Source: an uncultured Verrucomicrobiae bacterium (GTDB taxonomy: Bacteria > Verrucomicrobiota > Verrucomicrobiia > Limisphaerales > UBA11358). Taken from it: DNA of 64,000 nt. Shown here one piece after another: positions 5,958 to 63,816 of this stretch (position 1 is the first letter of the stretch; each line of letters starts with the position of its first letter). The translations under genes and the position numbers were made by a program. The DNA is taken from the NCBI GenBank assembly GCA_963789335.1, contig CAWBKH010000002.1, forward strand, positions 985,355-1,049,354. The letters are read 5' to 3'. Under the pieces are notes generated by a model. The model worked only from the letters and a program-made list of their open reading frames with translations. It had not been told where the DNA came from and did not search any database.

Positions 5958-6005
5958 GCCAAATAAGGCTCGAAAAGCGCCGGTCAAGCTCCCAGATTGG
6001 AAGCG

Positions 6006-7316
6006 ATGGATTTGATTCAGCGCTCCATTCAACTTGGCTGGCAACTGCGCGTCTTTTTCACCGAAGACGTTTTCGCCCCCGCCAATCTGGTTTTGAAAGA
6101 GGTGCTGGCCGATGGCGCACCGCGCAAAGTCTTGCTTGTTCTCGATGAAGGTTTGACCCGCCATCACCGGAACGCCGGATTGCCTTCAAAAATTGCCTCT
6201 TATTTTCAAACGCATAGCGCCGCACTTCAATTGGTTTGTCCGCCGCTCATCATTCCCGGTGGAGAAGCTGCCAAAAATTCCAGCGCGTGCGTTTCGCAAA
6301 TTCACTTGGCCATCAACCAATTCCACATTGACCGGCATTCCTACTTGATTGCCGTTGGTGGCGGCGCGTTGCTGGACGTCGCCGGCTTTTCCGCCGCCAC
6401 CGCGCACCGCGGCGTGCGCCACGTGCGCATCCCTACGACCGTTTTGAGCCAGGCTGATTCCGGCGTCGGTGTCAAGAATGGCCTCAATGCCTTCGGCAAA
6501 AAGAATTTCCTCGGCACGTTCGCGCCGCCGCACGCGGTCATCAACGATTTCAACTTGCTCGCCACGTTGGCAGCGCGCGACAAATGCGCTGGCTACGTTG
6601 AAGCCGTGAAAGTCGCCTGCATCCGCGACAAACATTTCTTTGACGAACTCGAACGCGAGGCGGAGAAACTGGTGGCATTTGAGCCTGATGCGATGAAGCG
6701 GCTCATTTATCGCTCCGCCGAATTGCATCTGCACCACATCGCCGCCAACGGCGACCCATTTGAGCGTGGCTCGGCGCGTCCGCTCGATTTCGGCCATTGG
6801 GCGGCGCACAAGCTGGAACAGCTCTCCAACTTTCAGATCCGTCACGGCGAGGCCGTCGCCATAGGTATCGCAATTGATGTGCTTTACTCGCGCAACGTCG
6901 GCCTGCTCGATGCTGTGTCCGCCGAACGCATTCTGGCCTTGCTGCAAAAACTGGAACTGCCACTGTCCACTTGCGATATGACCCGGCGAAGTTATCCCGA
7001 AGGCTCGCCGTTCGTCGAAAAGGTCGCGGACGCCTTTGACAAACTGGATTTGCAGAAATTGGACGCTGAAGTAAAAGTGCGTCCAGACAAGTTCCCGGAG
7101 GCGATGAGTGAACTGGATGAGTTATTCAGGAGCGCCCCGCCGTTCCGTCTCGAACTGGTGAATGGCCTGGAAGAGTTTCGCGAACACCTTGGAGGTGAAT
7201 TAACCATCACATTGTTGAAAAACATCGGCGAAGGTGTGGAAGTGCATGCGATGAATCCGGCCCAAATTGACGAAGCGGTCGAGGAACTGTGGAAGCGCTG
7301 CCACCAGCAGGTCTGA
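6006..7316 (+). CDS. sugar-phosphate cyclase / 3-dehydroquinate-synthase-like superfamily protein (probably not canonical AroB)
   Basis: GGGALLDVAGFSAATAHRGVRHVRIPTTVLSQADSGVGVKNGLN matches the DHQS-fold nucleotide and metal-binding region. C-terminal GLEEFREHLGG is present. The protein is about 75 aa longer than typical AroB. Start is ATG 6006 (or TTG 5997). Confidence 0.7.
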   Translation: MDLIQRSIQLGWQLRVFFTEDVFAPANLVLKEVLADGAPRKVLLVLDEGLTRHHRNAGLPSKIASYFQTHSAALQLVCPPLIIPGGEAAKNSSACVSQIHLAINQFHIDRHSYLIAVGGGALLDVAGFSAATAHRGVRHVRIPTTVLSQADSGVGVKNGLNAFGKKNFLGTFAPPHAVINDFNLLATLAARDKCAGYVEAVKVACIRDKHFFDELEREAEKLVAFEPDAMKRLIYRSAELHLHHIAANGDPFERGSARPLDFGHWAAHKLEQLSNFQIRHGEAVAIGIAIDVLYSRNVGLLDAVSAERILALLQKLELPLSTCDMTRRSYPEGSPFVEKVADAFDKLDLQKLDAEVKVRPDKFPEAMSELDELFRSAPPFRLELVNGLEEFREHLGGELTITLLKNIGEGVEVHAMNPAQIDEAVEELWKRCHQQV

Positions 7317-7317
7317 T

Positions 7318-8799
7318 ATGAACCGCCTTGCCGTTATCAACGTTGTCGGCTTGGTCGAAGCGCTCATCAGCGAACACACGCCGCGCATCGCGGAATTTCG
7401 CCAGCACGGCGCGCTGGCCCAAATCGTGCCGGCATTCCCGGCGGTCACCTGCCCCGCGCAATCGAATTACCTCACCGGCAAATTGCCGTCGCAGCACGGC
7501 GTCGTCGGCAACGGCTGGTACGATCGCGAGCTGTCTGAAGTCCAATTCTGGAAACAATCGAACCATCTGGTGCAAAGCCCAAAAATCTGGGATGAACTCC
7601 GAAAGCAATCTGAATTAGTAAATCGTAAATCATCAATCGTAAATCTGTTCTGGTGGTTCAACATGTATTCGAGCGTGGATTATTCCCTCACGCCGCGCCC
7701 GATGTATCCTGCCGATGGCCGGAAGGTTTTCGATGTATATTCCCGGCCGTATTCAATTCGCACGGAAATCAAGCGCGACCTCGGCGAATTCCCGTTCTTC
7801 GGTTTCTGGGGCCCAGCGGCAGGGATCAAATCCCCGCAAGGTTCCGCTGATTGCGCGACGCGCTGGATTGCCGAGTCCGCGAAGTGGATTGAAAACAAAT
7901 ATCAACCGACGCTAAACCTGATTTATCTGCCACATCTCGATTACAATTTGCAGCGATATGGACCGTTCGGAGTTCCGCCTTCAGGCGGCAAGGTTGAAGC
8001 GCATCCACCCGCGAACCGCCTGAAGGCGGAACTCCAAACCAAAATCAATCCCGCCATCATTCCTGACCTGCACGCGATTGATGCCATCGTCGGCGACCTG
8101 ATTAATTTCTTCAACAAATGCGGCGTGCAAGTCGTGTTGCTCTCCGAATACGGCATCACGAACGTGGACACGCCGGTTCATCTCAACCGGATTTTCCGCG
8201 AGCAAGGCTGGCTGGCGGTGAAGGATGAACTCGGCCTGGAAATTCTCGACGCAGGCGCAAGCAAGGTTTTCGCCGTAACGGATCATCAGGTTGCACATAT
8301 TTACCTCAATGATGCGTCGCTGGAAAAATCTGTGCGCGAACTGCTGGAGAAGACCGAAGGCGTGGAAAGCGTTTTAGGCAAAACGGAAAAAATCACGGCG
8401 GGTATTGACCATCCGCGCGCCGGTGATTTGATGGTCGTGGCGAAGGAAAACGCGTGGTTCACCTATTATTACTGGCTGGACAACGTCCGCGCGCCGGATT
8501 TCGCGCGGACGGTGGACATCCACCGCAAGCCGGGCTTCGACCCGGTGGAACTGTTTCTCGACCCGACGATTCCGCTGCCGAAATTGAAAATCGCCTGGCG
8601 CTTGCTGCAAAAGAAACTTGGTTTCCGAATGTTGATGGACGTGGTCCCGCTCGACGCAACGCTCGTGAAAGGCTCGCACGGCCGGCGACCGATGGACAAA
8701 ATAGACTGGCCGGTGTTCATTACAGAACGACCGGAAACGTTGGACACAAAGCAGATTGAATCAACGGATGTGTTTCACGTCTTACAGCAGCATCTTTAA
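7318..8799 (+). CDS. alkaline-phosphatase-superfamily enzyme (nucleotide pyrophosphatase/phosphodiesterase-like)
   Basis: N-terminal VINVVGL...P, FPAVTCPAQSNYLTGKLPSQHGVVGNGW (metal/nucleophile-region motif of type I phosphodiesterase/NPP) and SEYG. The ATG at 7318 follows the upstream stop (TGATATG). Confidence 0.7.
   Translation: MNRLAVINVVGLVEALISEHTPRIAEFRQHGALAQIVPAFPAVTCPAQSNYLTGKLPSQHGVVGNGWYDRELSEVQFWKQSNHLVQSPKIWDELRKQSELVNRKSSIVNLFWWFNMYSSVDYSLTPRPMYPADGRKVFDVYSRPYSIRTEIKRDLGEFPFFGFWGPAAGIKSPQGSADCATRWIAESAKWIENKYQPTLNLIYLPHLDYNLQRYGPFGVPPSGGKVEAHPPANRLKAELQTKINPAIIPDLHAIDAIVGDLINFFNKCGVQVVLLSEYGITNVDTPVHLNRIFREQGWLAVKDELGLEILDAGASKVFAVTDHQVAHIYLNDASLEKSVRELLEKTEGVESVLGKTEKITAGIDHPRAGDLMVVAKENAWFTYYYWLDNVRAPDFARTVDIHRKPGFDPVELFLDPTIPLPKLKIAWRLLQKKLGFRMLMDVVPLDATLVKGSHGRRPMDKIDWPVFITERPETLDTKQIESTDVFHVLQQHL
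7604..7645 (+). repeat. tandem heptamer array (GCAATCT GAATTAG TAAATCG TAAATCA TCAATCG TAAATCT) inside the phosphatase CDS
   Basis: Period-7 repetition read directly; it is translated as ...QSELVNRKSSIVN... Confidence 0.7.
7969..8035. repeat. palindromic element: GGAGTTCCGCCTTCAGGCGG - 27 nt - CCGCCTGAAGGCGGAACTCC, inside the CDS
   Basis: Perfect 20-bp inverted repeat read directly; translated in-frame as GVPPSGGKVEAHPPANRLKAEL. Confidence 0.85.
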
Positions 8800-12110: not shown

Positions 12111-13829
12111 TTATGACGGCGACTCAACTGCCTCCTCGTTCGGTTCTTCAGGCGGCGTAACGAGGGATTCGGCCGGGGCGGGTTCGGCCGCCGCAATGGA
12201 TTCTGCGGTTGGCGACGGAGCCTCGGCTGGCGCTTGAATTTCCGGCGCAGGTTCGGGCGGCGTTTGAACTTCCGTGCCCGGCACAACGGTGGTCTCAGCT
12301 TGCCGTCCAAGCTCCGTTGCCGACGCGGTTTCAGCTTCGGCCGCCGTTTTTTTCTCCGGTTTCGGCGGCCGGGGCGCGGGTTTCTTGGCGGTTTCCAGCC
12401 GCCCGTCGGCGAACTCAATGACGTGGCCTTGATGCACCAGCCAGTGCAAATCGGCGATGATGGCGTTTTGCTCCGCTGTCGGTTCGGCGGTTGGAGTGCC
12501 GCTCTTAGGCGGTTCTTGGGCACCGACCGCCTGAAGGCGGGACTCCGAACCCGGTGCCTCCGCTTCAGGTTTGATTTCGATAACCGCCGGCTGCGGCGTC
12601 GGCGCGAGCGTTTCGATCAACTGCCGCCGGCTGCATTTCGGATGCGCGTTAACGTGGGCGATGATGCGCTTGATGCTTTCCGACACCGGCGTGGTTTCGA
12701 GGTCGAGAAACTGCGGGCGCGCGACGGAAACGTGGGTGAAAGTCTTGTTGACCTTGAAAAACTGCAGGCCATGCGTGGCCAGTTGCCGGCTGAGTTCGGT
12801 GGCCAGTTGCAGCGGAAAATGTCTTTGCTGCTCCCATTCCATGCGCACCAACCGTTGCAATTCGCGGCTGCGCAAATTGCGGCTCGGCACGCCGACGACC
12901 GTGTGCGACTCGACGGATTTGATGATCGTCTCCTTGTGGACGGCGCGGAAATGTTTTCCCACCTCTTCCAGACTCGGCAGTTTGAGCGGTTCGGGCACAT
13001 TAAGCACCACGTATTCGGTCTTGAAACTCTGTTCCTCGACCCACTTCTTGACGACCGCCTCGTCCTTCACGATTTTCACGCGCGCCTTGAAGGCGTCGAA
13101 CGGCATTCGGGCGAACCGCTCGACGTGCAATTTGCGCAACCGGTTCTGGTAATCGTGATGGTTCGGCGGGCCGAGAATCACGCCGCTCATGCCGCATTGT
13201 GCGACAAACGTGTAGGTGCCCTTCGGCGGCTCGGTGGCCGTGCGTTCGGCCTGATAAAACGTGGTGAAATGGCTTTTCAGGACGTGCGCCACTGCCTCGT
13301 CCTCGCTCAGCCACGGCGTGTCGTCGAGCGCACACACAAACAGCGGTTGCGCAACGGCGCCTTCGGGCTTTTTCTTCACCGCCAACCGGACGGCATAGCG
13401 TTCCGGCTTTTGCAAAACGAGCTGGGCAATCTGGAAAAGCGGATACGCCCGTCCGGTCATCTTGATCTGGCGCGCGAGCGATTCAACGCCCCTCTCGTCC
13501 GGCAGAAAAACCACGGCGATTTCCGGCAGCGGCGCAGGCGGTTCGCGGTGTTCGCGTTCGCTCCGGTCATCGCGCCGGTCGAAACCCCTTTTACGATCGC
13601 GGTCGCCAGATTTCGGGCCGGAGCGCGGCGGACGGGGACCGCGACGTTCGCCGAATGATTCACCGCGCGGCTCTCCGCGACGGCCTTCACGCCGGCGATC
13701 GCCGCGTTCCGCTGGCTCGCCGGCAAACTTTTCGTAGCGATTGGCCTCCGGCTTTTCTTGAGCCCACGCGGGCTGGAACAAATTTTCCAGATCCAAATCC
13801 ATGTCGGGAATGCTGCTCATGGGAAACAA
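12111..13829 (-). CDS. hypothetical protein with Arg-rich N-terminal and Pro/Ala/Glu-rich C-terminal low-complexity regions
   Basis: 572-aa ORF. The N-terminus reads RGDRRREGRRGEPRGESFGERRGPRPP...DRDRKRGFDRRDDRSEREHRE. The central roughly 330 aa are non-repetitive. It sits between recA and the DEAD-box helicase on the same strand. Confidence 0.7.
   Translation of the reverse strand: MFPMSSIPDMDLDLENLFQPAWAQEKPEANRYEKFAGEPAERGDRRREGRRGEPRGESFGERRGPRPPRSGPKSGDRDRKRGFDRRDDRSEREHREPPAPLPEIAVVFLPDERGVESLARQIKMTGRAYPLFQIAQLVLQKPERYAVRLAVKKKPEGAVAQPLFVCALDDTPWLSEDEAVAHVLKSHFTTFYQAERTATEPPKGTYTFVAQCGMSGVILGPPNHHDYQNRLRKLHVERFARMPFDAFKARVKIVKDEAVVKKWVEEQSFKTEYVVLNVPEPLKLPSLEEVGKHFRAVHKETIIKSVESHTVVGVPSRNLRSRELQRLVRMEWEQQRHFPLQLATELSRQLATHGLQFFKVNKTFTHVSVARPQFLDLETTPVSESIKRIIAHVNAHPKCSRRQLIETLAPTPQPAVIEIKPEAEAPGSESRLQAVGAQEPPKSGTPTAEPTAEQNAIIADLHWLVHQGHVIEFADGRLETAKKPAPRPPKPEKKTAAEAETASATELGRQAETTVVPGTEVQTPPEPAPEIQAPAEAPSPTAESIAAAEPAPAESLVTPPEEPNEEAVESPS
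12493..12546. repeat. palindromic element GGAGTGCCGCTCTTAGGCGG - 14 nt - CCGCCTGAAGGCGGGACTCC inside the CDS
   Basis: Same arm sequences as 7969-8035; translated on the minus strand as ESRLQAVGAQEPPKSGTP. Confidence 0.8.
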
Positions 13830-17242: not shown

Positions 17243-18565
17243 ATGGTTCACATCGAATCGGAAAAACTATTTGCCGAGGCACTAAAATTCATTCCCGGCG
17301 GCGTGAACTCACCGGTGCGCGCCTTTCGCGCCGTCGGCGGCCAGCCGTTCTTTGTCAATGAAGCCAAGGGCGCGCACGTCTGGGACGTGGACGGCAACGA
17401 ATATATTGATTACGTCTGCACCTGGGGCCCGGCGATTCTCGGCCACGCGCATCCGAAAATCGTTTCCGCCGTCAAAGCCGCCGCCGACCGCGGCACGAGC
17501 TTCGGCATTCCCAATCCATTTGAAGTGACGATGGCAAGGCTGATTTGCTCACTCGTGCCGAGCGTGCAAAAGGTGCGCATGACCAATTCCGGCACCGAGG
17601 CGTGCATGAGCGCCATCCGCCTCGCGCGCGGTTTTACCCGCCGCGACAAAATCATCAAGTTCGACGGCTGTTATCACGGCCACGCGGATTCGCTGCTCGT
17701 CAAAGCCGGCTCCGGCGCGCTGACGTTTGGTAATCCCGACAGCGCGGGCGTGCCGGCGGCGTTCACGCAGCACACCATCGTTTTGCCGTTCAACGATATT
17801 GACGCAGTGAAGGCCGTGTTCGATGCGAATAAAAATCAAATCGCTGGAATCATTGTCGAGCCGGTGCCGGGCAATGCCGGAGTTTATCTGCCAAAACCGG
17901 GCTACTTGGAATTTCTCGGTGAAATCACCAGTGCCAACGGCGCGCTGTTAATTTTCGATGAGGTAATGACGGGCTTCCGGCTTGCGCCCGGCGGCGCGCA
18001 GGAACGATTCGGGATCGCGCCGGATTTGACGTGCTTCGGTAAAATCATCGGCGGTGGCCTGCCGGTGGGCGCGTTTGGCGGGCGCGCGGACATCATGGAT
18101 TTGCTCGCGCCGCTGGGACCGGTTTATCAAGCCGGCACGTTAAGCGGCAATCCACTCGCGATGGCAGCGGGCATCGCGGCGTTGGAGGAACTGAACGTTG
18201 GTAGGGACGCTGCGCTGCGGCGTCCGGACAGCGCAGCACGCTGTCCCTACCAACAGCTTGAAGAACTCGGCGCGCAACTGGAAGCCGGCCTGAAAGACGC
18301 CGCGAAGGCCGCAAACGTTCCGGTCCAATTTAACCGCTGCGGTTCGATGTTTTGCGCATACTTTACGAGCGAGCCGGTTCACAATCTGGCCGATGCGATG
18401 AAAAGCGACCGTGCGCGGTTCGCCAAATTCTTTCATGGGATGGTTGATGCAGGTGTTTACCTCGCGCCATCGCAATTCGAGGCCGGCTTTATTTCCACCG
18501 CCCATGCAGAGACGGACATTGATCAAACGGTGAAAGCAGCGGCCACCGTTTTGCGGAGGCTGTAA
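17243..18565 (+). CDS. hemL: glutamate-1-semialdehyde 2,1-aminomutase
   Basis: Class III aminotransferase motifs, [13 protein letters not shown], and FDEVMTGFR...FGKIIGGG with the PLP lysine context. Confidence 0.95.
18200..18251 (+). repeat. 52-nt palindromic element GGTAGGGAC...GTCCCTACC inside hemL
   Basis: Terminal 9-bp inverted repeat plus inner GCTGCGCTG/CAGCGCAGC stem. 43/52 nt are identical, without gaps, to 62589-62640. Confidence 0.85.
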
Positions 18566-22258: not shown

Positions 22259-23560
22259 ATGCGCACAATTTTCCCTGTCTGGCGACGCGCGTGGACGCAT
22301 GCCGCCGTCTTTTCATTTCTGGCCGTTGGATGCGTGGGTTCCCTTCACGCCGCGTCCGAAACCAATTCACGACCATTCTATCTGGGCGCGGACATTTCCA
22401 CCCTCCTGCAGGTCGAGCAACGCGGCGGCATTTACATGGACGGCGACAAGCCCGGCGACGCGCTGGCCATTTTCATGAAGCACGGCTGGACTTGTTTCCG
22501 GTTGCGCATTTGGGTGGACCCCACCAATGGCGTGAACGGACTGGAATACACGATCAAGCTGGCCAAACGCATCAAGGACGTCGGCGGAACGTTCATGCTG
22601 GATTTCCATTATTCCGACTGGTGGGCCGATCCGCAAAAGCAGAACAAGCCCGCCGCCTGGGCCAATCTGGATTTTGACGCGCTGGTCCAGCGAATGCAAA
22701 CCTACACCGCCCACGTCATCAAAACGCTAAAGGACGCCGGTGCCACGCCGGATTTCGTTCAGATCGGCAACGAAATTACCGGCGGTATGTTGTGGCCCGA
22801 CGGCCAGGTGAAAGTTCCGCTTTCCACCGTCAAGGTGTTCCAAGGCGATGTAAAGGTAATCAAACCGCCTGAACCCTACAACGACGCCAAACAATGGAGC
22901 CATCTTATTCGTCTCATCAACGCGGGCATCGCCGGCGTTCGCTCGGTCACCACGCCCCGGGACCACGTTCGCATCATCATTCACATTGATTGCGGCGGCG
23001 ACTGGCCGGTCACCAAGTGGTACTTTGATCATCTTGCCAAAGCCGGGGTGGACTACGATATTATCGGCCAGAGCTATTATCCGAACTGGCACGGCAGCTT
23101 GCAGGATGTCCGCGACAATCTGCGAAACACAATTGAGCGTTACCATAAAGACGTGATGATCGTCGAGACCGCATATCCCTCACGGGATGTTCATCCCTCA
23201 CCGGCTGCGGCCAAGTACATGGTCTGGCCCATGACGCCAGCCGGACAAAGGCAATTTCTGTCTGACTTGATCAAAACGGTCAAGGCCGCGCCTGATGGCC
23301 GTGGGATTGGCGTCATCTACTGGCATCCGGAAGCAACCTATATTCCGGGAGCCACCGGCTGGTGGAGCCGGCCCGACGCGAATTCGCTTTTCAATGACCG
23401 CGGTTATCCGCTTCCGGCAATGAATGTGCTTGCCCCGTGGAGTAACGCGCCGAGTGCAGACGAGAGCCAGATGGGGAAATACTCCACGGGGCAAGGTCTT
23501 CAGCCCGAACCAAACTCCGGAATGGTCAATGCAAAAAATCCAGCCGAGTCTCATGATTGA
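22259..23560 (+). CDS. glycoside hydrolase family 53 (arabinogalactan endo-beta-1,4-galactanase)
   Basis: GADISTLLQVEQRGG, FRLRIWV, VQIGNEITGGMLWP and IGQSYYPNWHG are GH53 hallmarks. Confidence 0.85.
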   Translation: MRTIFPVWRRAWTHAAVFSFLAVGCVGSLHAASETNSRPFYLGADISTLLQVEQRGGIYMDGDKPGDALAIFMKHGWTCFRLRIWVDPTNGVNGLEYTIKLAKRIKDVGGTFMLDFHYSDWWADPQKQNKPAAWANLDFDALVQRMQTYTAHVIKTLKDAGATPDFVQIGNEITGGMLWPDGQVKVPLSTVKVFQGDVKVIKPPEPYNDAKQWSHLIRLINAGIAGVRSVTTPRDHVRIIIHIDCGGDWPVTKWYFDHLAKAGVDYDIIGQSYYPNWHGSLQDVRDNLRNTIERYHKDVMIVETAYPSRDVHPSPAAAKYMVWPMTPAGQRQFLSDLIKTVKAAPDGRGIGVIYWHPEATYIPGATGWWSRPDANSLFNDRGYPLPAMNVLAPWSNAPSADESQMGKYSTGQGLQPEPNSGMVNAKNPAESHD

Positions 23561-38054: not shown

Positions 38055-38078
38055 GTAGCAGCCGCCGTGAGTCGGCTC
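38055..38078 (+). repeat. REP-like unit GTAGCAGCCGCCGTGAGTCGGCTC
   Basis: GTAG followed by an AGCCG/CGGCT hairpin. One of four related copies in the window. Confidence 0.75.
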
Positions 38079-38084
38079 TGAATT

Positions 38085-38150
38085 TTGTAGGAGTCGAGGT
38101 AACGAGACTGATTTTTGAAAGTCAGAGACTCCTTACGTCGTCTCCTACAA
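38085..38150. repeat. 66-nt imperfect palindrome bounded by TTGTAGGAG ... CTCCTACAA
   Basis: Terminal 9-bp perfect inverted repeat; the inner arms are partially complementary. Confidence 0.7.
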
Positions 38151-44130: not shown

Positions 44131-44204
44131 CGGGATTTGTGATATACGATTTACCAACCGCTTGCCGGTTTGCGCGTAAATCGTAAATCGGAAATCGTGA
44201 ATCA
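44131..44204. repeat. nested hairpin filling the purS-purQ spacer: inverted heptamer arrays (..TACGATTTA / TAAATCG TAAATCG GAAATCG TGAATCA) around a GC-rich mini-hairpin AACCG-CTTGC-CGGTT
   Basis: Read directly. 19/23 identity between the reverse complement of the left arm and the right arm. Confidence 0.7.
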
Positions 44205-52649: not shown

Positions 52650-52786
52650 GACGTGAAACATCGAACATCAAACATCGAACACCTGCCGCGACGGTGCGCG
52701 AGCACGGCGAGTCAAACGCCGAATGAAGCTGGCGCTCGCCACATTTTCGTTCGATGTTCGGTGTTCGATGTCCGGTGTTCGATGTT
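52650..52786. repeat. inverted pair of heptamer arrays (AACATCG x4 at 52657-52684; CGATGTT/CGGTGTT x5 at 52752-52786) around a ~60-nt GC-rich spacer
   Basis: Read directly. The arms are complementary over about 28 nt with 3 mismatches, one of which is G-U compatible. Confidence 0.8.
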
Positions 52787-52896
52787 TTTCCATTCCATCC
52801 CATGAGCGACGAGCACGATCATCCTCACGATCACGAGCACGAACCTCGCGCGCCGAGCCGGCGCCGGTAGCCCAGGACGATGCCGGTTCGCAGGCC

Positions 52897-63726: not shown

Positions 63727-63728
63727 TT

Positions 63729-63801
63729 GGTTAACTGAGTTAAATAAGTTAAATCTGGCGAACGCGCCGAAACTGATTTAACTCATTTAGCTTATTTAAC
63801 C
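63729..63801. repeat. nested hairpin: inverted arrays of a 9-mer (GAGTTAAAT AAGTTAAAT / ATTTAACTC ATTTAGCTT ATTTAACC) around the GC-rich mini-hairpin GGCG-AAC-GCGCC
   Basis: Read directly. About 22 of 26 arm positions are complementary. Confidence 0.7.
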
Positions 63802-63816
63802 CGCTTGAACAACAAT

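Follow-up and report, generated by a model that had tools for sequence, protein, structure and literature searches.

Palindromic insertion in a phosphodiesterase gene

The window analysed here is the whole 64,000-nucleotide (64-kb) stretch of contig CAWBKH010000002.1 from an uncultured Verrucomicrobiae bacterium. Our subject is a 75-nt palindromic element at positions 7965-8039 of this window, which lies in frame within a gene for a phosphodiesterase of the alkaline phosphatase superfamily and which is most probably a doublet of repetitive extragenic palindromic (REP) units. At the core of the element, GGAGTTCCGCCTTCAGGCGG (7969-7988) is followed, after a gap of 27 nt, by its exact reverse complement, CCGCCTGAAGGCGGAACTCC (8016-8035), giving a perfect inverted repeat with arms of 20 nt, and a repeat finder extends the arms to 24 nt (7965-7988 / 8016-8039) at 96% complementarity, with one mismatch. 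Each arm contains, in addition, a mini-hairpin of its own (CCGCC-TTCA-GGCGG on the left, CCGCC-TGAA-GGCGG on the right). The arm has three matches in the window at up to 3 mismatches, compared to 0.00 expected from 100 dinucleotide-preserving shuffles, the third match being part of a second copy at 12490-12550. As RNA, the element is predicted to fold far more stably than shuffled sequences (sense, −48.1 kcal/mol, z = −7.5; antisense, −57.0, z = −8.8), and the predicted folding energies of the two strands as single-stranded DNA are −28.4 and −31.5. The flanks, GGACC on the left and CAAAATC on the right, contain no direct repeat. In a permissive search of Rfam 15, the sole match overlapping the element was a generic hairpin (mir-3431; 27.4 bits vs. 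a gathering score of 100) and thus, no known RNA family applies to the palindrome.

The protein encoded by the host gene belongs to the type I phosphodiesterase/nucleotide pyrophosphatase family (PF01663, E = 1.1 × 10−53), and the element is translated within the open reading frame (ORF) at 7267/7318-8799 (+) as ...GPFGVPPSGGKVEAHPPANRLKAELQTKINP.... When homologues were collected with HMMER from 1.84 billion representative proteins, the distant ones aligned to the phosphodiesterase as two stretches, approximately residues 3-217 and 245/251-492, with a gap located exactly at the residues translated from the palindrome (~217-250). Similarly, in a comparison of 80 metagenome loci, orthologues at a greater distance (62-68% identity) have a PHLDY...GDL segment of 31 aa (e.g. 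LQRLGPKHPAIARDL), which in the window comprises 57 aa, a gain of 78 nt (26 codons) that equals the 75-nt palindrome plus 3 nt. Given that the distant homologues lack these 26 codons, the element is an insertion in the phosphodiesterase gene. A preliminary description of this DNA had reported the 20-bp inverted repeat with its 27-nt separation and the small hairpin in each arm, and had held that the palindrome inserts into coding sequence, proposing an alignment of orthologues; all of this stands, and the alignment, when made, revealed the insertion.

A structural model of the phosphodiesterase, predicted with AlphaFold2 (AF2) from a diverse alignment, has a mean predicted local distance difference test score (pLDDT) of 94.2 and a predicted template modelling score (pTM) of 0.93, and adopts the fold of nucleotide pyrophosphatases/phosphodiesterases (NPP) and phosphonoacetate hydrolase; a shallow alignment (75-84% identity) gave an unusable model (pLDDT 45). 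Low confidence is limited to two blocks, residues 171-180 and 221-240, of which the latter is the insert, located between helix 206-214 and helix 245-267. The insert is accordingly modelled in a flexible, permissive loop. Residues 171-180 (window ~7828-7857) correspond to a clade-specific extra segment of about 8 aa (SPQGSADC) that is missing from distant homologues, next to a small T-arm-like palindrome, GGGATCAAATCCCC (7822-7835), which gave a weak spurious match to Rfam. Directly upstream of the phosphodiesterase gene, a gene of the 3-dehydroquinate (DHQ) synthase family (PF01761; window 5997-7316) is found, and it occupies this position in all four orthologous loci examined (L209-L212), which suggests a conserved two-gene module.

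The repeat family

The second copy in the window consists of a left unit, GTTGGAGTGCCGCTCTTAGGCGG (12490-12512), and a right unit, CCGCCTGAAGGCGGGACTCCGAAC (12527-12550), separated by a 14-nt spacer and flanked by GGCG on the left and CCGG on the right, with no direct repeat; it is translated as ...GSESRLQAVGAQEPPKSGTPT..., in a different frame from the first copy (Table 1). Some orthologues of its host gene run from VIEVKPEGQ straight to PAAAAEPTPEQ, with no element, and others contain the full element or only the EGGTPN half. Two orthologues (genes 85% and 77% identical) carry the element in the same place, with one arm kept at 24/24 positions; the other arm is degenerating in the window.

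Table 1 Positions of the repeat units and of their host genes in the window.
Feature	Position	Strand	Remarks
Host gene 1: alkaline-phosphatase-superfamily phosphodiesterase/nucleotide pyrophosphatase, 493 aa from called start	7318..8799	+	PF01663; ORF open from 7267; identical to P0001
Probable REP doublet (REPIN-like), 75 nt, in frame in the phosphodiesterase gene	7965..8039	.	24-nt arms (96%), perfect 20-nt core, folding z
Left unit: tag GTTCGGAGTT (7965-7974), CCGCC (7975-7979), TTCA (7980-7983), GGCGG (7984-7988)	7965..7988	+	
Spacer between the two units, 27 nt	7989..8015	.	Variable across genomes; homologous in the four orthologues sharing the insert
Right unit, inverted: CCGCC (8016-8020), TGAA (8021-8024), GGCGG (8025-8029), AACTCCAAAC (8030-8039)	8016..8039	−	
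Second probable REP doublet, member of the same family as the first, 61 nt	12490..12550	.	Unit 12490-12512 partly degenerated
Host gene 2: conserved verrucomicrobial protein, no Pfam domain	12111..13820	−	Element in a Pro/Ala/Glu-rich variable linker

A scan for CCGCCTGAAGGCGGRACTCC over one genome per GTDB species matched at least 120 genome stretches, from Verrucomicrobiota (Limisphaerales, Pedosphaera, Udaeobacter and others), Acidobacteriota (Pyrinomonadaceae, Blastocatellia, Terriglobia) and Planctomycetota. The figures given for individual genomes and units in this section refer to the matches listed. These also include Lentisphaerae, Desulfobacteraceae, Sumerlaeota and a few probably mis-binned metagenome-assembled genomes (MAGs). 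Copies are present on separate contigs of a single MAG, for example, in Pyrinomonadaceae JTS-AC48, Blastocatellia F1F2.bin.491 and Planctomycetota MFD09671.bin.2.141; with several contigs matched per MAG, some of them megabase-sized, the spread over multiple phyla is not just contamination.

The consensus unit consists of the tag GTTYGGAGTY followed by a 5-bp stem with a TTYA loop (hereinafter, the GTTYGGAGTY family). Perfect stems were found in 142 of the 173 units selected by the tag, and when units were chosen by a short tag, excluding the searched pattern, 69 had perfect 5-bp stems compared to 4.2 expected with shuffled partners, more than 10 different stems sharing one loop. The variation of the stem among units thus consists of compensatory changes. 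An inverted partner was located within 130 nt for 76 of the 136 arms, with spacers of 0-73 nt (median ~21), the remaining 60 being solitary. Partner units often have other stems (CCGGC/GCCGG, CCGCG/CGCGG, CCCAC/GTGGG, CCGCA/TGCGG), the TTYA loop being constant, which implies that the hairpin and outer tag of each unit, rather than pairing between the arms, are conserved. No target-site duplication was detected at the two window copies or among the 138 copies listed, and the canonical GT[AG]G, sought 0-2 nt from the foot of the hairpin, is present neither in the two window copies nor in the consensus, where the sequence adjacent to the stem is GGAGTYC.

By a crude measure, approximately 49% of the copies fall within open frames of at least 600 nt, compared to 75% of random positions, so that the family is depleted in genes yet far from excluded. 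It is found between genes and as single units as well and, in frame, in UvrA (twice), in the linker of a Ser/Thr kinase, in a DUF7133/HEAT protein (two copies) and in a BNR-repeat protein (two copies). The UvrA copies are those of L080 (~2917-2937), where the insert is located between the ABC signature motif and the Walker B segment (LSGGESQRLKLAAHLAEFGVPASAGSTPEPPEGGTPNKAIFIFDEPTTGLH), and L097 (~2518-2538). Short tandem arrays adjoin some elements, namely, GGTTTGATTT/C repeats in L020 and repeated fragments of the tag, CATGGAGTTCC, in L067; slippage or repeated nicking at the tag may have produced these arrays.

The preliminary description had already postulated a family of such elements and placed a second copy with near-identical arms in an unrelated gene (12493-12546). 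The broader sampling confirms both points, with a somewhat larger extent for the second copy and with the arm occurring in public genomes usually as part of an inverted doublet. The result named there as fatal to that view, two copies alone in the genome with both peptides conserved in orthologues lacking the DNA palindrome, was not what we observed, copies in the source genome having been scanned for within the 64-kb window. What the preliminary description did not recognise is the apparent identity of the family, a REP/REPIN-type repeat linked to a transposase. As a DNA or RNA string, the arm was not found in any paper in the searchable literature, and a broader keyword search also returned nothing relevant.

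Linkage to REP-associated tyrosine transposases

A motif scan of the fetched loci detected one ORF of the Y1/HUH type, in Candidatus Udaeobacter (L059, 3738-4358, minus strand, 206 aa). The encoded protein has a proline-rich N-terminus and the motifs LPNHYHALL (the HYH form) and YVHHNPV, and matches NCBIfam NF047646, 'REP-associated tyrosine transposase' (RAYT), with E = 1.3 × 10−21 and 77 bits. Among its 1,749 homologues at E ≤ 10−5, several are named REP-associated tyrosine transposase by JGI. The NCBIfam match, the HUH and Y motifs and the JGI names of the homologues together identify this protein as a RAYT. Upstream of its gene lies GTTTGGAGTTCCGCCTTTAGGCGG, and downstream of it CCGCCTGAAGGCGGAACTCCAAAAC. 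Homologues with 70-75% identity, all flanked on both sides by units of the GTTYGGAGTY family, are encoded in L201, L204 and L208, on long contigs and each in a different setting, the neighbouring gene pairs being MutS/FAD-oxidoreductase, GSDH-like protein/NAD synthase and glutaredoxin/HD-domain protein. Thus, a RAYT gene flanked by family units, an arrangement known as a REPtron, was observed in four independent contexts. In some REPtrons, the start codon of the RAYT gene lies inside a repeat unit (GTTTGGAGTTCCGCATTTATG; L204, 1480-1503), and in L208 several complete doublets are present on each side of the gene (around 1501-2121).

Age of the insertion and conservation of the arms

Four orthologues of the phosphodiesterase gene (L209-L212) contain the insert of the window at the matching nucleotide position, with spacers identical at 19-25 of the 27 positions. 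The shared position and the homologous spacers indicate that the insertion is older than the divergence of these genes, and it has been inherited vertically since before several related lineages split. The arms in these orthologues are identical to those of the window at 46-48 of the 48 positions (96-100%), compared to 78-82% identity in the rest of the gene. The same holds at third codon positions, where 14-16 of 16 are identical in the arms and 60-68% elsewhere (binomial P = 6.5 × 10−5 to 5 × 10−3). The rare changes in the arms are confined to the loops of the mini-hairpins or the Y position of the tag and never affect the stems. This pattern indicates that the arms are being maintained at the nucleotide level, either through selection or through concerted evolution.

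An insertion hot spot

The insertion site, which follows LQRHG, was surveyed in the 120 closest orthologues (75-84% identity; loci L122-L176, proteins P0002-P0120). In 112 of these, an insert is present at the identical codon position, and the inserts represent nine or more palindromic families, all in frame (Table 2). At the DNA level, the inserts are palindromic, and 16 of the 36 long ones carry GT[AG]G and C[TC]AC at opposite ends; these 16 can be classified from their sequences as canonical GTAG REP doublets. The GTTYGGAGTY family itself has entered the loop independently at least twice, the type found in L124/L133 having different stems and a slightly different position.

Table 2 Families of inserts at the phosphodiesterase hot spot.
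Insert family	Orthologues
VVGDEVTSL...PPHVGSYK	30
PLTRPSATLSPPGGERDGARG	17
SEGRAGSP...TRPT	12
VAANVSS...SHERGY	11
GVPPSGG...LKAELQ (family of the window element)	10
VGGTGVSP...RRDACST	10
VKSLNRSIV...FNDST	8
ERGCxQPQH...EDTRAPQ	7
CSVRP	2
Other	5

The site is mostly empty in orthologues with 62-68% identity, and in the close clade, the 'empty' forms of 36-37 aa resemble what deletion of earlier inserts would leave behind when compared to filled sites (L128 vs. L132; L147 vs. the window). In the order obtained by the unweighted pair group method with arithmetic mean (UPGMA), which is poorly resolved, the nearest neighbour has an insert of the matching family in only 48 of the 120 cases. This suggests turnover, with repeated gain and replacement of inserts at the site, a poorly resolved tree giving no proper count of events. 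The reading frame is open through the site in 120 of the 120 orthologous proteins and in 79 of the 80 metagenome loci, the site not being locatable in the remaining one. In the tag-first orientation, a unit of the GTTYGGAGTY family is stop-free in all three frames, and in the inverted orientation a stop (TGA or TAA, from the loop) occurs in one frame only; with units nearly stop-free by frame, survival in frame is easy.

Other palindromes in the window

A third intragenic doublet, with canonical GTAG tags (GTTGGTAGGGACGC...GTCCCTACCAAC), is located at 18197-18254 in a hemL-like aminomutase gene (17243-18565, +), where it is translated in frame into 19 residues between LEELN and QLEELG; this brings the intragenic REP-type doublets of the window to three or more. 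Between genes, at 38085-38150, lies a GTAG doublet, TTGTAGGAGTCGAGGTAACGAGACT...AGACTCCTTACGTCGTCTCCTACAA, with a further GTAG unit at ~38056-38080. When translated, this doublet belongs to the VVGDEVTSL...PPHVGSYK family, which fills the hot spot in ~30 of the 120 orthologues. Inverted repeats of other types are present at 52656-52787, 63727-63812, 44134-44196 and 23429-23495; these consist of AT-richer AACATCGAACA and GTTAAAT-type units and include a perfect 16-nt inverted repeat at 23429/23480. One of the AT-rich types resembles the GTTGAATCGTT family that is present at the hot spot in other orthologues.

Origin of the insertion

Taken together, these observations make it likely that the element at 7965-8039 is a non-autonomous REP doublet of the REPIN type, linked to a RAYT, that landed in the phosphodiesterase loop, was kept in frame and has been inherited vertically. 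RAYTs bind a single-stranded hairpin together with its 5' tag, and cut and rejoin single-stranded DNA without generating a target-site duplication. Under this scenario, the GTTYGGAGTY units would be substrates of such HUH/Y1 transposases, one of which would have moved the element, and the source genome would presumably encode the enzyme. One doublet would have landed in the loop between two helices of the phosphodiesterase, where it could survive because the 78 added bases are a multiple of three, the frame is free of stops and the loop tolerates extra residues; the insert is, then, presumably translated and roughly neutral for the enzyme. Similar reasoning would account for the second copy, with a low-complexity linker of another gene tolerating the doublet. 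The involvement of a RAYT is well supported by association, the association being that seen in genomes other than the source genome.

Several observations weigh against this interpretation. The tag of the family is not the canonical GT[AG]G; two doublets of the family were seen, within the 64-kb window, and the mobility of the family is something we infer from sequence comparison. The Udaeobacter protein scores just under the curated cut-off of the RAYT model (77 vs. 80 bits), and Pfam gave it no match at E ≤ 0.01. A motif scan combined with tblastn found no RAYT gene in the 64-kb window, and the four RAYT genes flanked by family units come from Udaeobacter-like or other assemblies, none of them of the window's own lineage. 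Finally, the arms are far better conserved than the gene, unlike a neutral, dead insertion, which hints at selection or concerted evolution and is the main point that a simple dead selfish insertion leaves unexplained.

This conservation is the principal argument for a different explanation, under which the hairpin is kept for a function of the host at the RNA or DNA level, such as a site for RNase III or for mRNA stability, a pause in translation between two folding units or a site of protein binding, so that the element would be an exaptation and its mobile origin secondary. The near-identity of the arms in the four orthologues, extending to third positions, is compatible with such a role, as are the sparing of the stems, the arm of the 12490-12550 element kept at 24/24 positions in two orthologues and the great stability of the structure; moreover, effects of REPs on mRNA stability and on termination are known (summarised in PMC6006769). 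However, other orthologues have quite different palindromes at the phosphodiesterase site and the more distant ones have none, so that no specific sequence is required there; gene conversion among copies could also yield conserved arms, and the family occurs between genes and as single units as well. We regard a host function as an unlikely primary explanation.

Even less probable is a miniature inverted-repeat transposable element (MITE) derived from a conventional DDE insertion sequence, with the 20-24-nt arms serving as terminal inverted repeats bound by a DDE transposase. The two inverted terminal arms, the short length, the variable interior and the multiple copies in many genomes would fit a MITE, but 60 of the 136 arms listed are solitary, every arm forms a covarying hairpin by itself and partners may differ in their stems, which is unexpected for terminal repeats bound by a transposase, and the sole transposase found between arms is a Y1/HUH protein of the RAYT type. 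Target-site duplications were sought and none was found, at the window copies or at the copies listed, and a DDE-derived MITE was rejected. Another reading takes the palindrome, without any insertion, for a side effect of encoding a conserved peptide or for mere coincidence. In its favour, every orthologue with the stretch reads through it in frame and free of stops; nevertheless, shuffled sequences predict none by chance, the segment is missing from the wider protein family, and the same DNA is found in intergenic positions as well as in unrelated genes from other phyla. Translation of the two window copies uses different frames and yields unrelated peptides, and synonymous positions in the arms are conserved; on these grounds a coding-driven palindrome was rejected, and we assign it a negligible probability.

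A further, rather speculative possibility is that the phosphodiesterase loop acts as a landing pad, where REP doublets from different families insert time and again, degenerate and take each other's place, the arms being actively maintained once in the loop. Targeting could result from RAYT-type enzymes, or hairpin-dependent recombination, acting on pre-existing palindromes, and even the ancestral Gly-Pro...Pro-Ala codons at the loop are GGCC-rich; selection on the hairpin or conversion from other copies might keep the arms. Should this be the case, REP systems would regularly supply hypervariable peptide loops in conserved bacterial proteins, and a family with identical arms in Verrucomicrobiota, Acidobacteriota and Planctomycetota would either be moving horizontally or be subject to an unusually strict constraint on its recognition. 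In practical terms, such inserts matter for annotation and for alignments of protein families, where they look like unexplained variable loops, and the site offers a test bed for how RAYT-linked repeats pick their targets and why the arms stay conserved after insertion.

Comparison with known systems

REP/REPIN and RAYT (TnpA_REP) systems were reportedly characterised in Escherichia coli and Pseudomonas, by Nunvar in 2010 and by Ton-Hoang and Messing in 2012. The family described here resembles these systems in the combination of a conserved 5' tag with a short GC-rich hairpin, in the occurrence of inverted doublets with variable spacers along with singlets, in the compensatory variants of the stem, in the lack of target duplication and in the single-copy-type Y1/HUH gene bracketed by units. 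The differences are the tag at the foot of the stem, GTTYGGAGTY instead of GT[AG]G, a stem of only 5 bp and the large share of copies, including both in the window, inside open reading frames, whereas REPs are typically extragenic. In addition, near-identical 20-nt arms span several phyla here, whereas REPs are usually called species-specific (PMC6006769). REPs, REPINs and RAYTs are well described (Bertels & Rainey 2011, PMC3116915; PMC6006769), the REPtron arrangement defines REP-RAYT systems (PMC6006769), and degenerate tags are known in some REP families (PMC3733652).

The closest transposase group by motifs, and by these only, is subclass 2.8 of TnpA_Y1 (Quentin et al. 2018, PMC6006769), which shares the HYH form of HUH, the proline-rich N-terminus and the Y-x-x-x-NP motif and which has relatives in unrelated phyla (PMC6006769). 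The genes of this subclass are flanked by long canonical GT[AG]G REPs (PMC6006769), unlike the units considered here.

In-frame palindromic insertion in coding genes is the one behaviour shared with the Rickettsia palindromic elements (RPEs), which are set apart by their description. RPEs, reportedly reported by Ogata and colleagues in 2000, are said to be translated palindromic repeats that lie in frame in genes and are tolerated in surface-exposed segments. RPE-1 is longer and confined to Rickettsia, and we know of no transposase tied to it; in contrast, the present family is found in Verrucomicrobiota and other free-living phyla and is linked to a RAYT. RPEs are also mentioned in the survey of intragenic REPs discussed below (PMC3733652).

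Intragenic REPs are a documented exception to the extragenic location of REPs, Verrucomicrobia included (PMC3733652); Di Nocera, De Gregorio & Rocco (2013, PMC3733652) described intragenic GTAG/CGTC REPs, notably in the verrucomicrobium Opitutus terrae. Those REPs resemble the present ones in forming in-frame dimers that code for 20-30 aa in known proteins, with uvrA among the recurrent hosts, and in the presence of different REPs at about one site in orthologues (in that case, recB of Xanthomonas). They differ in the tag, which here is neither GTAG nor CGTC; the peptides EGGTP, LKAEL, GVPPSG and SRLQA and the DNA string GGAGTT were not found in the supplementary tables of that study. In scale, the hot spot described here, at which ~112 of the 120 orthologues hold inserts from at least nine families, goes beyond what that study reports. 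The basic phenomenon, palindromic repeats lying in frame in genes, has been on record since the Rickettsia RPEs and the REP survey of 2013. The departures from the picture of extragenic, species-specific REPs are the non-canonical tag with arms shared by multiple phyla, the frequent intragenic copies, including those in uvrA, and the hot spot occupied by multiple families, and it is the GTTYGGAGTY family itself, its spread over several phyla and this hot spot that are unusual among intragenic REPs and REPINs.

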